Virus record (IMG/VR): IMGVR_UViG_3300037400_002156
Span: 32,001 to 96,000 of that record
DNA from: a virus
Lineage: Duplodnaviria; Caudoviricetes
Direction: 5' to 3' (one strand)
DNA: 64,000 bases
The position numbers and the translations under genes were made by a program. The notes below the pieces were generated by a model that saw only the letters and a list, made by a program, of their open reading frames with translations, had not been told where the DNA came from and did no database searches. Positions 1,400 through 46,203 of this stretch are shown here, one piece after another. How positions within the stretch are numbered: the stretch's first letter is position 1; every line of letters begins with the position of its first letter.

Positions 1400-2065
1400 T
1401 TAAAACATATCTGAATCATTTATCATTGATGATAAATTACATTTCTTTTTATTAGGTATTTTCTTAGTAGTACTAATAACAGATGTCTTACTATAATTAA
1501 AGAATGTAATCTGATCTGGTGATATACATAGTGGAGTACTTTCAACTGTATAAGGCTTACCTGATGAAGTTTCAATAAAAGTTGAATTTGATTTTCTTAT
1601 GTATATATTATCTTTATAGAATTTCTTTGTACAATCTGCTATCACAAATATAAGCTTACAATCATCTGATGATATACACATATTTATAAATGAATTAATG
1701 TAATCATTAATATTTGGAGAATTGTCATAACCAAGAAGTTTAATTACTACAACCTGGCTAATTAGTGCCTGAGGGTGCACTATTGACTTTGTATTACATC
1801 TCATTGCATGCCATGATTGATATATCTTTGAATCGTCTAGTACAGTTGGAGCAACTAATTTCTTTGATAGCATATATGTTAATGGGTATGCACACCAGTT
1901 AGACGCATCAATGTCACCAATTGCTACAATCTTGTTGCTAGGCTCTAGACTCAGAAGTAAATCTTTATCTTCATCAGATAATCTACGAATATTACTCGTA
2001 AGCAGATCTCTATATAAAATTGCAATTCTATTTATATTAAATGACTTATTATTTTCTATAGTCAT
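1400..2065 (-). CDS. Hypothetical protein
   Basis: 221-aa ORF with GGAG RBS; no recognisable motif. Confidence 0.7.
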   Translation of the reverse strand: MTIENNKSFNINRIAILYRDLLTSNIRRLSDEDKDLLLSLEPSNKIVAIGDIDASNWCAYPLTYMLSKKLVAPTVLDDSKIYQSWHAMRCNTKSIVHPQALISQVVVIKLLGYDNSPNINDYINSFINMCISSDDCKLIFVIADCTKKFYKDNIYIRKSNSTFIETSSGKPYTVESTPLCISPDQITFFNYSKTSVISTTKKIPNKKKCNLSSMINDSDMF

Positions 2066-2111
2066 CTTTCTAACTCCAATGATGTCGTAATTATTATATT
2101 ATATAATTACA

Positions 2112-2228
2112 TCATTGATTTATTACATTTAACTTTATCTTTGAATATCCGCACGTAAAAGTAGTATAATCATGAGATGTGTATGAATGTTCTAAAACAT
2201 CACTATAGTCTAAAGAGTGCATATAGTT
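2112..2228 (-). pseudogene. C-terminal remnant of a homing-endonuclease-family gene interrupted by IS607
   Basis: Reads NYMHSLDYSDVLEHSYTSHDYTTFTCGYSKIKLNVINQ*, matching the NNY...TCGYS tails of 40601..41908, 45103..46203 and 21864..22946. Confidence 0.8.
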
Positions 2229-3814
2229 GTAATTTACATAGAAATATATTCTAAATAAATTACTTCGTAAATAAATTTACTGGCGTACTACACACCTCTA
2301 TCCCATATTCTATAAAGACGTTTGGGATTTCTTTTCTAAGAATATTTAGCGCACCATTTAGATCAGCATTTATTAATCTGCCATCGTAAGATCTAAATAG
2401 TCCTCGTTTAATTCGTTTTCCTTTATATGTTTCATGTTTGCGAATTTCTTCATCGTCTAAAAATGAGCATTTACTAGTGTATGATTCTTCACGAACTACA
2501 ACTTCAATGCCTTCAAGTTTAGATTTATAAGTAACCATGTGAATAAACATATTGAAAGGAATTTGAACAAATTTCTGATTGTTTGATTTACCTAAATCAA
2601 TGTCTTGTTTCCAATTCTTATTGTGTCCTATTACGATTTTAGACACGTCATTAGAAACTAAATGATTCACCAATTTTCGGCTTGCTTTGTGGATGTAGTC
2701 TTTTACTTTGTTATTTCTTTTCTGCGTTAGCTTTCTAATTTTGTCAGCATTTACATTTCTGTTCTTGCAAAGACCCTGCTTTGATTTTAGATTAGCTAAT
2801 TCTTTATTATAGAATTGGTTGATTGACTTCAAAGGCCTGCCACTTACTAATATCGGAGCAATTTTATTTCCTCCGACTGCTGCCAAGTTATTAAGACCAA
2901 TGTCGATTCCTACATAATTACCGTTGTCATAATGCTGCTTCTCATCAACGTTATATATAACTTCAATAATAAATAATGCGTTCTTAGGTATGACTCTTAT
3001 CTGTCTAACATCTGTATGAATCAACTTTATTCTGCTACTACAACCACTAAGTTTCAGATAGCCAAGTTTCAATTCTTTTCCTGATATAGCCTGATTTGTA
3101 AACGTTAGCATATATCTCGAATTCTTTTCTAGGTATCTAGGTATTGAAACTTTGTGATTTACTTTCTTTGACTTTAAAGAAGCAAAGAATGATCTGAAAT
3201 TCTGGTCTACCTGTTTAACAACCCACTGCGCAACTTTTGCTGGTAAAGAAGTATAGTCGATTTGTTTTTCTTTTGTGAGTTGACCGACATTAGCGTAATA
3301 ATTCAGATATTCTTTTGTATTGAAGTAATGCTGTCGTATTCTATAAAGTGCTTGATTATACAGATTCTTAGACAGAAAGCACATCTGATCTAATTCGCTA
3401 TATAGCGAATTAGACTTCTTTATGATATGTCTCTCTGTTAATAACATGTTAAGATTCCTTTTCGATATCTTTAATAGCCTATTTTACTTTTAACTTTAAT
3501 CTCTTACTTTTACGAAGACCGTAAATTCTTGCAGAGAAGCAATGTATTATTAAGATTAAGTCCTGTGTAATGTCTTCATCTTCTTCTTTAGCCTCGTTAA
3601 TTACTTCGATTCTATTACCTGTTAATAATTGAATGTAATTAAAGCCAAAACGTGTTAGACGATCTTTGTGTTCTACTATGATTTTATCGTACTTGTCATC
3701 TTTTAGAATTTTTGAAAGTTGTTTACGATTGTCATTTAAACCAGAACCAAATTCTTTCACAACTTGTTTTATCTTGTACCCTTTAGCGATGGCATATGCC
3801 TCTAATCGCTTTGC
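2229..3814 (-). mobile_element. IS607-family element with left end and tnpA 5' part deleted
   Basis: Serine-recombinase tnpA fragment plus tnpB. An imperfect hairpin at 2229-2263 (GTAATTTA...TAAATTAC) marks the likely right end, after which host-gene sequence resumes. Boundaries are approximate. Confidence 0.8.
2260..3447 (-). CDS. tnpB: TnpB RNA-guided endonuclease
   Basis: RuvC motifs GIDIGLNNLA, REESYTSKCSFLD and NADLNGALNI are all present; N-terminal SKNLYNQALY is typical. Confidence 0.95.
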   Translation of the reverse strand: MLLTERHIIKKSNSLYSELDQMCFLSKNLYNQALYRIRQHYFNTKEYLNYYANVGQLTKEKQIDYTSLPAKVAQWVVKQVDQNFRSFFASLKSKKVNHKVSIPRYLEKNSRYMLTFTNQAISGKELKLGYLKLSGCSSRIKLIHTDVRQIRVIPKNALFIIEVIYNVDEKQHYDNGNYVGIDIGLNNLAAVGGNKIAPILVSGRPLKSINQFYNKELANLKSKQGLCKNRNVNADKIRKLTQKRNNKVKDYIHKASRKLVNHLVSNDVSKIVIGHNKNWKQDIDLGKSNNQKFVQIPFNMFIHMVTYKSKLEGIEVVVREESYTSKCSFLDDEEIRKHETYKGKRIKRGLFRSYDGRLINADLNGALNILRKEIPNVFIEYGIEVCSTPVNLFTK

Positions 3815-4015
3815 AGTAGATGATCGGCAACCACATGATTTTGTGTGACCACGAATAACACGTTTGTATGGAATATCTTTTACATTACCACATGTACACT
3901 TACATCTGAATACAACAAAATTATTATCGTCTCTAAGTACATCTAGCACTTCTAACGAATCGAATATTTTGCCAATGTATTCACTTTTAAGAATGTCTAT
4001 ATTAATTCTGTTCAT
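3479..4015 (-). CDS. tnpA: Chimera: endonuclease N-terminal Cys domain fused to truncated IS607 TnpA resolvase
   Basis: Residues 1-67 (CKCTCGN...HTKSCGC) match the endonuclease paralogues. The rest (EFGSGLNDNRK, VEHKDRLTRFGF, FSARIYGLR) is IS607 TnpA. The HTH and the catalytic YARVS motif are absent. Confidence 0.85.
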   Translation of the reverse strand: MNRINIDILKSEYIGKIFDSLEVLDVLRDDNNFVVFRCKCTCGNVKDIPYKRVIRGHTKSCGCRSSTAKRLEAYAIAKGYKIKQVVKEFGSGLNDNRKQLSKILKDDKYDKIIVEHKDRLTRFGFNYIQLLTGNRIEVINEAKEEDEDITQDLILIIHCFSARIYGLRKSKRLKLKVK

Positions 4016-4103
4016 GATTATTAAGTAATAAGTGGGTAAATAAAATCCCTATTGCATATATAAATATACACAATAGGGATTTAAAATTTAATTGATGATA
4101 TTA

Positions 4104-6518
4104 TTAGGTGTTAGCCATAGCCTCTTCAATAGTAGTTGAAGATGAGTAAATTACGTAAGATAAATCAAATATTTCCGCCGACTGGTAGAAAATCACACGA
4201 ATAATTCCATTTATCTTGCGGTTCGCAATCTCCTCACGTGATGTTGTATCTTCACCCATTTGAACCATATACTCGCTAAGAGCATTTGACGAAACTAATG
4301 GATCAAGAATATACTGAGAAACATATGTCTTCCACTTATCCCATAGAACAAGACTATTAATAGAGAACTTAAGTGTCTCTGTGTATTCATCAATTTCGCT
4401 ACGAATCCAAACAAGCAAGCGAGCAATATGAGCTGCATTAAGATCTGTATATCCAGCGTTTAGAGTTTCATTTCCGAAAATCTGAACACCTCTTGTGCCA
4501 GTGTCCCAAATAGGATTAATTCTATACTGTACTAACTGATCTCTTTCAAGCTTTGTTTTTGGATTCTGTAAAACTTCTACTGTATCTGGAAGCACGCCAC
4601 CTTGATCTCCAGCTACTGGGAACTGAACGCCTCGATTTCGCCATGAAGTTAGAATATTATTCATTACAAGATTTGTAGGAGCGACTTTAACTTTTACATT
4701 ACGCGCTGAGCCATTTACAATCTTTGTGCATGTCATCTCTAACCATGACCAGTACATCTCTAAATAGAAACTCTGTGTTGCGTAATCTTCAGTATCTGTT
4801 TGACCATATTCCCAAAGATCTACAAAGTCACCTTGTGAAGCAACCCAATTACATGCATCTGTCATCTCCATTGGAGTTAAATCGCCATATTCTTTATAGT
4901 ATGGAGTTGAAAGAATCACCGTAGTGTCTTTGCGCTCACTCGCTATTTCTTTCATATAATAATGAAGTGTACGACGATCTTCGTAGTTTAAAGCATATAA
5001 ACCTGTAAGAGGATCGCTACTATTAGAACGTGTATTTACTGGACAAACAAGATCTGCCATTAAACGGCCATTATATTTCTTGTCTTTGTACTGGTTTAAT
5101 GCATTCACGTAATTAGTAACATTAACTACAAATGAAGGATTGCTTATAGTAACAGGACCGATAACTGGGAATGGGCTTGGTGATAATCCACCATCAGCAA
5201 CTGAATAATCATGTAAAATTTTAACTGCTAATGAATTTAAACCATCTTCTTTTACTGCACATGCATTTGCTGTAGAAGGATCCATTAGTTCAAATCTAAT
5301 TACTGTACCTAGAGCAGAGTTTAAATTATTTACAATTGACTGATTTGTTACTGTAGGATCACTAATCTTAATTCTTGAAGAGGCAAGAACACTATTGTTA
5401 ACATCTTTAACCGTTACATTAAGATAATATACATTTAATGAGTATGGCTTTGTTTTAGTTAGTTCACAATTAAATTGTAAGTCTTCAGCCATTGAAGAGT
5501 ATGCTACCATACAATGCTCAGCACGAGCTGCCGATTTAACTACTAAGATGTGACCACTAGTGAGAGCATCACGTAAAGTAACGGTAACAGACCAAGTACC
5601 GTCTAAATCCTGAGACCACACTACGTTTTCTGGCTCAACTGGTGTTTCTACTGTTGGGCTATCTGAATCATTTACATCTGCAAATGATGTAATTACATAA
5701 CGAGATGAAAGTTTTGTAGCGGTATATTTCTTTGTATCTGTAGAATCTACAGCAAGAGGAATATTCTCTACACCCCATGACTCATCGATAGCGCCTTCAA
5801 CTGAAATATTAGTAGGTTCTGGAATTACACCACTGTCAGGTAAATTTAGTGTAATAACTAAGTCAAATGTACTAATACCATTTACGAAGTGTTCTTCGCA
5901 CTTATATGTAAAATAGTCTGTGTAATCAATATTGCCTACATACGCCGCTGGCATATCCGCTGAGTTAGTTATTACATCGTCTGGCTCACCTTCAACTTCA
6001 CTTTTAACTGTAAATGGTAAAGTATAGAATGAGCTAGCTTCTAAGTCTGGTGTTAAAGAGTCTGTATTAGTAGATCCTGTAACTCGCTTAATGACATATT
6101 TATTACGTAAACCAGTAATTTTCCACTCGCCACTCTCTGGTACTGGATGATGATCACTCAGGTCTTCTTCTGTATCTCTAAGCTGATCATTTACAAATGG
6201 AAATTCATATACACCTGCATCACCTGAATCAACTTTTGCAACCCAACAAGTTCCACCATTTGCAACTAACTGCATAATACTATAAAGATCAACATATTTC
6301 TCAGGGTCAATACGAGGATCACCAAAGTTAGCAATTAGAGTATCAACATCACGAACTAAAATTGGATCATATTGATTTGTTACTGAGTTTTTCTGCACTC
6401 TTGAAATCGGAGTAATGCATGCAAATAAGCCATTAAATGAGGCTATATTTGGCACTACTGATTCGTCTTTTACACGTGATTTTACATGCGCACTCTCACG
6501 ACTATCTATTTTTATCAT
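4104..6518 (-). CDS. Tail sheath protein (T4 gp18-like)
   Basis: N-terminal NFGDP; C-terminal FPVAG...ERDQLVQYRINPI...IFGNETL...LNAAHIARLL sheath motifs. Confidence 0.9.
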   Translation of the reverse strand: MIKIDSRESAHVKSRVKDESVVPNIASFNGLFACITPISRVQKNSVTNQYDPILVRDVDTLIANFGDPRIDPEKYVDLYSIMQLVANGGTCWVAKVDSGDAGVYEFPFVNDQLRDTEEDLSDHHPVPESGEWKITGLRNKYVIKRVTGSTNTDSLTPDLEASSFYTLPFTVKSEVEGEPDDVITNSADMPAAYVGNIDYTDYFTYKCEEHFVNGISTFDLVITLNLPDSGVIPEPTNISVEGAIDESWGVENIPLAVDSTDTKKYTATKLSSRYVITSFADVNDSDSPTVETPVEPENVVWSQDLDGTWSVTVTLRDALTSGHILVVKSAARAEHCMVAYSSMAEDLQFNCELTKTKPYSLNVYYLNVTVKDVNNSVLASSRIKISDPTVTNQSIVNNLNSALGTVIRFELMDPSTANACAVKEDGLNSLAVKILHDYSVADGGLSPSPFPVIGPVTISNPSFVVNVTNYVNALNQYKDKKYNGRLMADLVCPVNTRSNSSDPLTGLYALNYEDRRTLHYYMKEIASERKDTTVILSTPYYKEYGDLTPMEMTDACNWVASQGDFVDLWEYGQTDTEDYATQSFYLEMYWSWLEMTCTKIVNGSARNVKVKVAPTNLVMNNILTSWRNRGVQFPVAGDQGGVLPDTVEVLQNPKTKLERDQLVQYRINPIWDTGTRGVQIFGNETLNAGYTDLNAAHIARLLVWIRSEIDEYTETLKFSINSLVLWDKWKTYVSQYILDPLVSSNALSEYMVQMGEDTTSREEIANRKINGIIRVIFYQSAEIFDLSYVIYSSSTTIEEAMANT

Positions 6519-12423: not shown

Positions 12424-12509
12424 AATAACCTACTTAACTACATAAAGAAAAACCCATAATGGAATATACACCATTATGGGCAAGTGTTTAATTATGTTAG
12501 ATATTTGAA

Positions 12510-21786: not shown

Positions 21787-21828
21787 AATTTAATATACAC
21801 AGTAGTATTATTCTGTGTATATTAAATT
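21787..21828. promoter_or_regulatory. Back-to-back divergent promoter pair (16-bp inverted repeat)
   Basis: AATTTAATATACACAG-N10-CTGTGTATATTAAATT between divergent genes; each arm carries the TGTATAT motif. Confidence 0.7.
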
Positions 21829-21863: not shown

Positions 21864-22946
21864 ATGAAACTAAAAGACATTTCAGAATTAAGAGATTTAT
21901 ACGTCGGTAAGACTTTTAACAAACTAACTATTACAGATATCTTAAGATCAGGTAAGAATTGGGTATGCAGATGTAAGTGCGAGTGCGGAGTAGAATGTGA
22001 AAAGAATCTAACAAAAGTTATTAGCGGACATACTAAAACTTGTGGCGGACACGTACATAAACTTGAGCAAGCGTCAAGACTGTCTCAACTATATAAAGAG
22101 CATCCAGAAATAGGTAAACGTGCTGGAGAAAAAATATCTTTATGGTATAAAGACGAAGAGAATAAGCCCGTTATACAAGAACGCTCTGATAATCATAGAA
22201 AATGGTGGGATGAGCACGGTGAACAACGAGAGTTTCAGTCCGATCGTATGATTAAAAAGTTTCTCAAAAATAGACAGTCTGCTGACTATTCAAATCTTAT
22301 ACAGATTATACATCCTAAGTATGTAGACGATCTATTATCAGGAAAGATTAAAAGAGACAATATAGTTGAAACGAAATGCCCATTATGCAATAAATACGGT
22401 GAGCATAAGTTTCACGACTTATTCCGTATAGCAAGTAACTCACTTAAGTATAGTCATGCTCTATTGTGTAGTGACTGTCAAAATGAAAAGACATCACATT
22501 ACGAAATAGAAATAGCAAATTATATAAATTCTTTTTGTAATAACGAGTGTATTAAGAATGACAGGTCAGTACTAAACGGAAAAGAGCTTGATTTATATTA
22601 TCCAGAAAAGAAAATTGCAATTGAATTTAATGGTGATTATTGGCATTCAGACGCGCATAAGTCTGATGATTATCACTATAACAAGTTCATAGAATGTTAT
22701 AATAGAGGAATTACACTTATAAGCATTTTTGAAAGTGAGTGGAATTCTAACAAAGATGCTATTAAAAGCTACATTAAAGACTTATTCAATGGCATAGAAA
22801 ATAAGCTATCATATAAGACAGACTCAGCTATTAATTTAAACTATCCGCCAATTAAGTTTGACATATCTCGATACTACGTTGAGAAAGCTTTCTACAGTAT
22901 AGGACATAGAAAAGTATATACTTGTGGATACGCTGTTGAGAACTAA
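21864..22946 (+). CDS. Putative homing endonuclease (Cys domain, Zn ribbon, Vsr/DUF559-like nuclease)
   Basis: CRCKCECG, CPLC/CSDC, ELDLYYPEKKIAIEFNGDYWHS, ISIFESEW. Confidence 0.85.
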   Translation: MKLKDISELRDLYVGKTFNKLTITDILRSGKNWVCRCKCECGVECEKNLTKVISGHTKTCGGHVHKLEQASRLSQLYKEHPEIGKRAGEKISLWYKDEENKPVIQERSDNHRKWWDEHGEQREFQSDRMIKKFLKNRQSADYSNLIQIIHPKYVDDLLSGKIKRDNIVETKCPLCNKYGEHKFHDLFRIASNSLKYSHALLCSDCQNEKTSHYEIEIANYINSFCNNECIKNDRSVLNGKELDLYYPEKKIAIEFNGDYWHSDAHKSDDYHYNKFIECYNRGITLISIFESEWNSNKDAIKSYIKDLFNGIENKLSYKTDSAINLNYPPIKFDISRYYVEKAFYSIGHRKVYTCGYAVEN

Positions 22947-40600: not shown

Positions 40601-41908
40601 TTATGAGTTTAAAATTTTTGAATAACCACATGTGTTTACTGTTATATTATTATATAGATAATTTAGCTCAACGTAACTTTCATTTTCATCTATGCTAATG
40701 TTAAGAGCTGGATAATTATTATTCATATATCCTTCTTTTAAAAAAGATAGATTATTATTTTTATTATTAAAAAGATCTCTAATGTAATCTTTAATTAAAG
40801 AATTAATTGAATTCCATTGAGATTCGAATATTGAAATAAGAGTTATCCCAATATCTCTGCACTTCTTAAATTTGTTATAATGATAATCTTTATCTTTAAA
40901 TATATTTGAATGCCAATAGTCTCCGTTAAATTCTACTGCTATGGATATATCAGGGTAGTATAAGTCAAGCTCATAAGGTGAAATTATTTCGCGAGAGTTT
41001 CTTATACATTCTCCGTTATAGAAAGTAGAAATATAATTAGCTATTTCATCTTCATATTTAGAAGTTACAAGTGATCTTAAGCATTTAAAGCATAGCGGTA
41101 TAGATTTAATCTTATTAATAGAATAGTCAATAATATTACCTATTCTGTGAAATTCATAGTTACCGCATGCTGGACATCGTGTTCTAACTTTTTCTACAGA
41201 TAAAGTATTACCAGAAACTACATTGTCTAAATCATCTTCGTGAATAAAACTAAGATCAATAGATGATACATCATTAGATCTCTTAATTATGTTAGATTTA
41301 ATAAGTGATTCACTTTGTAACTTTGATTGCTGTAATTTCTTATCATAATTATTCTTAATGTAATCAGATAGTTTCTTTCCAGCAATTTTTCCAATGTAAG
41401 GATGTTCAATGTAAAAATTATGATGCTGTACACCCTGATTAATAAGAATTTCAGGATTATCTTCTAACGTTTTCTTACGTTTTTCTGTCTTAGACTTTAC
41501 TTTATCAGGATTATTTTTACACCATTCAGAGTATCTATTTCCTTTTTCTAGAAGTTCATCTTTATGATTCTTGCACCATTCAGAATATTTCTTACCTCTT
41601 TCTTTCAACTTATCCGGATTCTGTGATATCCAGTTTCTTACTTTTTCAGATATCTTCTTACTGATGTCTGGATTGTTTTTACATAATTCTCTAAATCTGT
41701 ATGCTTTCTCTTTAGATGAGTTATAACATCCACACGATGTTGTCTTTCCACCATATACTCTTTTTAAATCTTTAACAGTAATGTTACCACATTTACATTG
41801 ACACTTACATACGCGATTTCCATGTTCATCTCTAAAAACGTCTAGTATTGTAAGCCATCCATAAGTGTGCCCAATCATCTCTGTTTTATAATCATCTAAA
41901 GTTTTCAT
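40601..41908 (-). CDS. Putative homing endonuclease (same family as 21864..22946)
   Basis: CKCQCKCG, WCKNNPDK repeats, CPAC/CFKC, ELDLYYP..AVEFNGDYWHS, TCGYS. Confidence 0.85.
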   Translation of the reverse strand: MKTLDDYKTEMIGHTYGWLTILDVFRDEHGNRVCKCQCKCGNITVKDLKRVYGGKTTSCGCYNSSKEKAYRFRELCKNNPDISKKISEKVRNWISQNPDKLKERGKKYSEWCKNHKDELLEKGNRYSEWCKNNPDKVKSKTEKRKKTLEDNPEILINQGVQHHNFYIEHPYIGKIAGKKLSDYIKNNYDKKLQQSKLQSESLIKSNIIKRSNDVSSIDLSFIHEDDLDNVVSGNTLSVEKVRTRCPACGNYEFHRIGNIIDYSINKIKSIPLCFKCLRSLVTSKYEDEIANYISTFYNGECIRNSREIISPYELDLYYPDISIAVEFNGDYWHSNIFKDKDYHYNKFKKCRDIGITLISIFESQWNSINSLIKDYIRDLFNNKNNNLSFLKEGYMNNNYPALNISIDENESYVELNYLYNNITVNTCGYSKILNS

Positions 41909-45102: not shown

Positions 45103-46203
45103 CTATAATGAATATCCACATGTGTAAACTACATTATCTCTAAATGTATAATAAAGATCATTATAATTTACACATTTAATATTCTTAAATGGCAATGGAT
45201 AGTTGTTATTCATTCCTAACTTATATATTGATAGACTATTTTCTTTATCATTAAAGAGATCTGTAATATAAAATTTTATGGCATCTTTATTGCGTAGCCA
45301 CTCAGATTCGAATATACTTACAAGTGTGATATTATTCTTATGACATTCAACAAATTTATTATAATGATACATCTCATCTTTAAATAAGCTAGAATGCCAA
45401 TAATCACCGTTAAATTCAATAGCAATCTTCTTTTCAGGATAATAAAGATCTAATTCAAACGGTGATATTATATTCCTTGAGTTTTTGATAAGAGTTCCAT
45501 TATAAAAAGTAGAAATGTAATCTATTATTTCAGACTCATATGATGAAGTTGAAAAGCATTTATCACATAAACGAAAACACTTTAACATCTTTTCAGATAT
45601 GTTAAATATATCTCTAACGTTATGCTCTGAAAAGTTTCCACATTGAGGACATCTTGTTTTTATCTTATCTGAAGATACTAGACTACCAGATAATAATTTA
45701 ACAAGGTCGTCTTCTTCTATCATATCACGAATATTATTATTCTCTACTATCTCACGTAAAGAGTTGACTCTATTAATCTTAGACAGCTCTTTATTTTTGT
45801 TAACATTTAATTCAATCATTCTCTGACGATTATTGTTTCTAATGTCTTCATGAGAATAAAACCATTCATGATGTCTCAGTGCTTGTTCTGCAATCTTATC
45901 AGGGTTGTTTTTGCACCATTGCTTATATTTATGAGATCTCTGTATAAGAATGTCTGGGTTATCTTTATATATCTGCTTACATTGATTAGAATATTCTTCT
46001 GATTTATTAAAACATCCACAAGATTTTATTTCACCTTTACGAATAACCTTAAGTAAATATTCTTTTACTGATCCACATCTGCATTGGCATTTACAAACAG
46101 TTCTATTATTTGAATTTGTATACACATCTAACACAGTTAACCAATTTATAGATTTACCAACTAATTCTGTTTTAAGATCATCAATGTTATATTTAATAGG
46201 CAT
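45103..46203 (-). CDS. Putative homing endonuclease (same family)
   Basis: CKCQCRCG, CPQC/CDKC, ELDLYYPEKKIAIEFNGDYWHS, TCGYS. Confidence 0.85.
   Translation of the reverse strand: MPIKYNIDDLKTELVGKSINWLTVLDVYTNSNNRTVCKCQCRCGSVKEYLLKVIRKGEIKSCGCFNKSEEYSNQCKQIYKDNPDILIQRSHKYKQWCKNNPDKIAEQALRHHEWFYSHEDIRNNNRQRMIELNVNKNKELSKINRVNSLREIVENNNIRDMIEEDDLVKLLSGSLVSSDKIKTRCPQCGNFSEHNVRDIFNISEKMLKCFRLCDKCFSTSSYESEIIDYISTFYNGTLIKNSRNIISPFELDLYYPEKKIAIEFNGDYWHSSLFKDEMYHYNKFVECHKNNITLVSIFESEWLRNKDAIKFYITDLFNDKENSLSIYKLGMNNNYPLPFKNIKCVNYNDLYYTFRDNVVYTCGYSL

Follow-up and report, generated by a model that had tools for sequence, protein, structure and literature searches.

A tnpB-only IS607 copy bracketed by homing endonuclease fragments in a 204-kb phage genome

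The stretch of DNA analysed here (the window) comprises 64,000 nucleotides, bases 32001-96000 of the 204,068-bp IMG/VR virus record IMGVR_UViG_3300037400_002156 (Duplodnaviria; Caudoviricetes), which is estimated to be 95% complete. On the minus strand, which carries every feature of the locus under discussion, fragments of one family of homing endonuclease genes (HEGs) bracket an insertion sequence (IS) of the IS607 family that lacks its left end as well as the catalytic portion of its transposase gene tnpA and retains an intact tnpB together with the RNA structure at the right end. The most probable explanation is a recent deletion private to this phage, in which case the intact tnpB would be a relic that has not yet decayed and has residual homing potential, not a demonstrated replacement of the endonuclease. 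An earlier note on this locus had proposed that an immobile RNA-guided nuclease replaced a protein-guided one; the observation itself is confirmed with refined boundaries and the replacement interpretation is partly supported.

Endonuclease fragments and the deletion junction

The open reading frame (ORF) at 3479..4015 encodes a chimera of 178 aa in which the N-terminus of an HEG product is fused in-frame with the C-terminal two thirds of TnpA. Residues 1-67 (window 4015..3815) matched three paralogs from the same genome with E values of 1e-12 to 2e-15. The paralogs, all intact, are 435 aa (41908..40601, minus strand), 366 aa (46203..45103, minus strand) and 360 aa (21864..22946, plus strand) in length, are assigned to PHROG 3339 'homing endonuclease', and share a PD-(D/E)xK-like core, ELDLYYP...IAIEFNGDYWHS, with weak resemblance to the MTES_1575 restriction-endonuclease-like domain. 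A search for longer proteins returned four full-length relatives of 505-527 aa (P0121-P0124) with 79-96% identity to the window fragment over the 67 N-terminal residues. These relatives contain two tandem CxCxCG...SCGC modules typical of the two-module free-standing HEG from which the fragment derives, and the window keeps the first one; including the bases shared with tnpA at the junction, the fragment extends over 3803..4015. The tandem duplication is absent from the three paralogs in the window.

The frame located 3' of tnpB ends with ...HDYTTFTCGYSKIKLNVINQ and a stop codon, and can be aligned with the C-terminal ends of every paralog and ortholog (...VYTCGYS... or ...FTCGYSKI...). This C-terminal HEG fragment of approximately 36 codons (2112..2222, ending in ...FTCGYSKIKLNVINQ) gave just low-identity, multi-stretch matches when its 36 residues were compared with 1.84 billion representatives. 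The HEG origin previously claimed for 38 codons at 2112-2228 was correct, and the start was not, the HEG part beginning at approximately 2222-2220. The nuclease core (ELDLYYP...EFNGDYWHS), which the paralogs and P0121-P0124 possess, is absent at the window locus as the earlier note had stated.

The IS607 ancestry of this defective copy is clear. The remnant of tnpA (3479..3814) covers only positions 20-115 of the Pfam Resolvase model, corresponds to residues 70-180 of the TnpA encoded by L019, and is 92-96% identical to full-length TnpAs of 190 aa over the shared part. The L019 locus, recovered in a metagenome scan, is an intact close relative with a tnpA of 190 aa and a tnpB of 395 aa, the product of which is 77% identical to the window TnpB. 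The window resembles L019 in DNA sequence from window position 3814 to 2221. Since the resemblance starts at 3814, the left end and the first 69 residues of TnpA, including the helix-turn-helix (HTH) and the catalytic serine (YAR[VT]SS, YARTSS in L019), are absent. The remnant also ends prematurely at a TAG (3481..3479) located ten codons short of the usual stop, behind which the old frame (AIKDIEKES and stop) is still readable. As in other members of the family, tnpA and tnpB share a strand and tnpB lies directly 3' of tnpA. Of the two ends of the element, the right one persists and the left one is deleted, and a working TnpA is lacking.

The boundary of the HEG N-terminus previously placed at 3815-4015 is exact in the DNA, with the similarity to L019 beginning at 3814. 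The first four codons past this boundary (3814..3803) specify AKRL in both parents, the HEG reading ...SCGCRSST-AKRL-DV... and TnpA ...LDNQ-AKRL-EAYA.... The corresponding sequence in P0121-P0124 is ...SCGCRSST[A/S/V]KRLDV..., with AKRL itself visible in P0121 and P0123. Location of the junction in a microhomology of four codons explains the in-frame fusion. A phage-borne IS607 containing tnpA, tnpB and the omega-RNA would have inserted approximately 36 codons before the stop of an HEG located just downstream of a gene for a tail-sheath-like protein. A single deletion of approximately 1.5 kb would then have fused HEG codon ~72 with tnpA codon ~70 at AKRL with the loss of approximately 400 HEG codons, the left end and approximately 69 tnpA codons, assuming that both fragments belong to one gene. 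Thereafter the element would be immobile, and TnpA provided in trans would not restore transposition.

TnpB and its RNA scaffold

The tnpB gene (2260..3447) encodes an intact protein of 395 aa that scored above the cut-offs for Pfam OrfB_IS605 (75.9 bits) and Cas12f1-like_TNB (39.4 bits) and matched PHROG transposase. Relatives number in the thousands in the database, and the best 120, 67-92% identical, were used for comparison; P0002-P0040 are 79-92% identical, and several of them are encoded on contigs of 184-290 kb. Alignments of 40 and of all 120 relatives show no variation at the RuvC residues D182, E321 and D362, in agreement with the earlier note that the RuvC motifs are kept, and the GIDIG motif aligns with GVDVG of ISDra2 TnpB. 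At columns with at least 95% conservation the window protein shows 2-3 substitutions, which equals the median for the family; one comparison gives 3 rare substitutions versus a family median of 2. The structure predicted with AlphaFold is of modest confidence (mean pLDDT, the predicted local distance difference test score, of 65, with a weaker C-terminal half), and the best Foldseek matches in the PDB suggest a fold like that of ISDra2 TnpB, ISFba1 TnpB and Cas12f (8H1J, 8IAZ and 8EXA). Identity as a TldR repressor was rejected on the basis of the intact RuvC triad and the full length of 395 aa. The ratio of nonsynonymous to synonymous substitution rates (dN/dS) relative to L019, a check proposed in the earlier note, was ~0.1; no decay is evident, and the value reflects history before the deletion and therefore says nothing on later selection.

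TnpB homologs were at most 53% identical in IMG/VR and at most 45% identical in GTDB genomes, L019 being the one close metagenome match, and 48 GenBank phage records contain related TnpBs. Close relatives were missing from IMG/VR, GTDB genomes and GenBank phages; those with >67% identity were recovered exclusively from contigs that are phage-like or uncultured. In all, the lineage has thousands of close relatives on such contigs, among them Lak megaphage records. No relative more than 45% identical was found in 185,579 species-representative cellular genomes; thus, the IS607 lineage of the window may be a phage-adapted transposon lineage.

The region overlapping the 3' end of tnpB contains a structured RNA. 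The 200 nt before the right-end boundary fold more stably than shuffled sequences (z = -4.7), the equivalent region of L019 (z = -3.75) adopts the same architecture, and compensatory changes between the two are found in two helices. A covariance model (R1) of the last 115 nt (2221..2335), the core of the omega-RNA scaffold, recovered this five-helix fold, located at the tnpB 3' end, from ~38 relatives with TnpB proteins 36-53% identical. In the R1 alignment 92.7% of the cells pair, compared with 58.5% in shuffled and 38-47% in slid alignments, and compensatory changes on both sides were observed for 30 of the 32 pairs, counts that are biased toward structure by the fitting of the alignment to the model. 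Third-codon-position identity with L019 is 0.75-0.80 for codons 276-385 versus 0.42-0.56 upstream, and this suppression of synonymous change over the last ~120 codons of tnpB is expected with an overlapping RNA. The comparison suggests that the RNA-constrained region may start near 2622 and, including 2260-2622, be longer than the 115-nt core. The terminal hairpin (GTAATTTAT.TAGAA paired with TTCTA.TGTAAATTAC; 2263..2229), which spans the tnpB stop, is real as the earlier note had proposed: a G-C pair is replaced by A-U in L019, and 14 of the 14 pairs of helix 5 covary family-wide. A search of Rfam with positions 1900-4200 (E<=1) gave no match, RAGATH-18 and introns included, and on this basis a RAGATH-18 right-end element RNA (reRNA) and a group I intron or IStron were rejected.

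The right end of the element was located by comparison of insertions. The similarity of the window to L019 extends up to ...GTAAATTAYAACTATAT (window 2221), beyond which the flanks are unrelated, and the terminal hairpin is followed directly by AACTATAT in both. The model match in relatives terminates at (A/T)AACT(A/G)T. In a single related IS, the sequences of three independent insertions (L006, L023 and L024) diverge directly past a homologous ACTGT. Since L019 and the independent insertions share the terminal motif, AACTAT(AT) at 2221..2228 in the window, the right end is at 2223-2221 and not at 2229. An HEG origin of the bases upstream of 2222, suggested by the resemblance of their translation to NYNYM or NNNYP, was rejected, the same bases being present in L019 next to an unrelated flank. 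The AACTAT motif also matches the AAC TAT codons of an MNNNYP motif found in HEGs just upstream of the insertion point (for example, at ~45200 in the 366-aa paralog), a likeness that could be an AT-rich coincidence or could point to a preference of the serine recombinase for targets similar to its own end.

The earlier note had also described a phage promoter motif upstream of the chimeric ORF. The octamer GTGTATAT (4071..4064) lies ~56 nt before this ORF and is a candidate phage promoter element. Among the 8-mers of the window it shows the strongest enrichment upstream of ORFs (14-fold); 6 of the 13 copies are intergenic and located 17-69 nt before an ORF start, and copies are present on both arms of the divergent promoter region at the paralog starting at 21864. 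The enrichment renders the assignment plausible, with the qualification that the loop of a terminator-like hairpin contains the motif. This hairpin (ATCCCTATTG...CAATAGGGAT; 4041..4080) precedes a T-run and lies directly after the sheath-like gene. The same arrangement is found at 12471 (12440-12480), where CCCATAATGG-TGTATATT-CCATTATGGG precedes a T-run, and the octamer is also present inside a 16-bp inverted repeat at 21793-21822 (region 21790-21825). The hairpins containing GTGTATAT suggest combined terminator and promoter cassettes beside endonuclease genes.

Overall, tnpB, which has its own ribosome-binding site (AAGGA), and the whole omega-RNA scaffold look functional. The anatomy, the boundaries, the intact protein and the RNA structure are shown, and expression and activity are inferred.

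Predicted guide, possible targets and age of the deletion

It is known that the guide of TnpB derives from the DNA flanking the right end (PMC8612924, PMC11061315). Since AACTAT belongs to the conserved IS end, the guide is predicted to be approximately GCACTCTTTAGACTATAGTG (2201..2220, minus strand), the 5' end of which may shift by 2 nt. The guide suggested previously, AACTATATGCACTCTTTAGA, starts 6-8 nt too early and includes the IS-terminal AACTAT(AT). If tnpB and the scaffold are transcribed from the HEG promoter region, TnpB would carry the guide from window 2220..2201 and could cut co-infecting genomes that contain the guide sequence next to a suitable transposon-associated motif (TAM), and repair with this phage genome as template would then copy the tnpB locus. 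The expected empty allele would be GCACTCTTTAGACTATAG without AACTAT in front. The guide has no second match in the window or the genome above chance, on the basis of which self-targeting of the HEG paralogs was rejected.

A match of the guide to the uninterrupted gene of sister phages, as claimed in the earlier note, is not supported. The guide region encodes CNIDLNN in the full-length alleles versus HSLDYSD in the window (...NNNYPSFECNIDLNNF... in P0121-P0124 versus ...HSLDYSDVLEH...); the full-length alleles would therefore not be targets.

When 5.8 billion protein clusters were searched, the chimeric ORF was the sole such fusion among the matches listed, and the close TnpA relatives among those matches are all full-length at 190 aa. 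These results suggest that the deletion is young, and a recent deletion alone predicts that tnpB is intact. Several of the close full-length TnpAs and close TnpBs are encoded on contigs of equal size and are probably parts of complete, mobile elements. Further independent 5' truncations or fusions of TnpA are present in the lineage (P0130 and P0150); thus loss of the tnpA 5' region appears to be recurrent. The contigs encoding P0150 and the intact 395-aa TnpB P0036 are both 9,787 bp. Loci with tnpB only and the RNA scaffold are likewise common among the phages of IMG/VR (L002, L003, L010 and L011) and, with the truncations, show that decay of this kind is frequent.

Several observations weigh against a locus derived from one HEG and occupied by a TnpB with remaining homing potential. 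The C-terminal HEG fragment is only ~35-40% identical to the tails of P0121-P0124, versus 79-96% for the N-terminal fragment, and a mosaic allele or two separate HEGs may be the origin of the two fragments. The record also rests on one metagenome assembly. Residue 336 of TnpB is Arg, a position occupied by Cys in 93% of relatives, and the canonical CxxC...CxxC zinc finger is missing across the lineage, in which only C327, C336 and H338 are found (R336 in the window). No empty or target allele was found among the HEG alleles or in IMG/VR with a degenerate HSLDYSDVLEH pattern and the exact right-end sequence. The left flank that would bear the TAM is deleted in the window, and comparison of the regions upstream of tnpA across relatives revealed no clear TAM. 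A search for the left-end boundary and TAM of L019 by way of homologs of its upstream ORF found none. The TAMs reported for IS607 elements, AGGAG and GAGGG as well as a predicted TGGG, are from other clades (PMC11061315; 10.1101/2023.11.20.567912).

It is unlikely that the stranded TnpB and omega-RNA are a maintained RNA-guided nuclease for homing or exclusion that took over the role of the HEG and targets the uninterrupted alleles of sister phages. The intact tnpB, scaffold and promoter motif and a guide derived from HEG sequence are consistent with such a role, as are the homing driven by TnpB established for IS605 and IS607 elements (10.1101/2023.11.20.567912) and the homing into co-infecting phages proposed in PMC13565253. 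However, a second genome with the deletion was lacking among the matches listed, leaving retention over time unsupported; the full-length alleles differ in the guide region with no target in IMG/VR, and the strong variation of HEG tails between alleles narrows the target range. The more specific proposal, that an active transposase-independent TnpB in a lytic jumbo phage is aimed at the uninterrupted alleles of its sisters and has taken the HEG niche, is rather improbable. Replacement of the HEG by TnpB as a maintained function, the conclusion of the earlier note, is without support given that the fusion is unique among the matches listed and the deletion is probably recent.

Alternatively, TnpB could be unexpressed or inactive, for example as a consequence of C336R, lost coupling to tnpA translation or the want of a usable promoter, and destined to decay. 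The rarity of C336R in the TNB region favors this possibility, as does the nonsense codon of the remnant, which removes the proximity of tnpA stop and tnpB start present in L019, and the upstream hairpin and T-run could terminate incoming transcription. However, position 336 is also Glu or Gly in some intact relatives, and the ribosome-binding site of tnpB, the complete scaffold and a number of rare substitutions at the family norm all argue in the other direction, and a dead gene is unlikely. Least probable is that the HEG fragments derive from two genes, or that the junction is an assembly chimera, so that the IS would not be inside the gene that supplied the N-terminus. The unequal identity of the fragments to P0121-P0124, the presence of at least three further paralogs and the single assembly would be accounted for in this way. 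Nonetheless, the shared stretch at the junction, at ~12 nt, is too short to mislead an assembler, the fragments are on the same strand in the order of one gene, and the tails of P0121 and P0122 themselves differ by ~50%. A tail divergence of ~50% is seen even between alleles with N-termini ~90% identical. The preferred explanation remains the recent private deletion with tnpB as a relic not yet decayed.

Neighborhood and relation to known systems

The gene order on the minus strand is the sheath-like gene, the hairpin and T-run, the 178-aa ORF, tnpB, the short ORF at 2222..2112 and an ORF of 221 aa with no assigned function located downstream of it. The upstream neighbor (6518..4104) encodes an 804-aa protein with a tail-sheath domain at the C-terminus. 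Its relatives in GenBank phages are only ~25% identical with none in IMG/VR, and thus no sister phage was found; megablast of positions 1400-4200 against GenBank phages gave zero matches. The 204-kb record contains one tnpB.

IS607 elements with TnpB and an omega-RNA or reRNA (ISFba1, ISXfa1 and CboIStron; PMC11061315, 10.1101/2023.11.20.567912) likewise encode a serine-recombinase TnpA and, next on that strand, TnpB, and have a structured RNA over the tnpB 3' end and right end, a guide from the right flank and a RuvC D/E/D triad. The window copy differs in the deletion of its left end and of the catalytic portion of TnpA, the lack of a RAGATH-18 match and of CxxC...CxxC, and a right end in AACTAT, most IS607 elements being reported to end in GG. 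The locus is an ordinary member of the tnpB-only copies and phage TnpB genes already known, among them those of the crAss-like phage csAssE-Sib, Lak-A1, and Staphylococcus and Bacillus phages, which also have tnpB and a scaffold without a working tnpA. It differs from these in that the cause is visible, a single in-frame deletion with the breakpoint in an HEG and the left end gone. The TldR proteins, phage-encoded nuclease-dead TnpB repressors (10.1101/2023.11.30.569447), are similarly derived from TnpB and reside at a fixed phage locus with no transposase, whereas the window protein is full-length with intact RuvC residues, and its long-term retention is unsupported. The free-standing phage HEGs of the Seg and Mob type in T4, known for intronless homing (reviewed in PMC13565253), resemble the window gene in a location between conserved structural genes and in several paralogs per genome; they differ in that the window locus has no nuclease core, and any homing there would need TnpB.

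If TnpB cuts the alleles of sister phages, for which the existence of a target is at present an inference, the locus would illustrate, in nature, a TnpB that serves as a free-standing HEG in phage-phage competition. Such a homing role has been proposed in a 2026 review, which counts among its categories 'transposon non-restorative homing' into co-infecting phages (PMC13565253), and is undemonstrated in phages; the idea of the earlier note is in keeping with this proposal. Irrespective of this role, the locus is a clean and well-bounded example of a tnpB-only copy arising by one microhomology deletion. The analysis has also provided the right-end boundary of the lineage with its AACTAT terminus, a scaffold backed by covariation that is distinct from RAGATH-18, and a lineage with close relatives on phage-like or uncultured contigs only.

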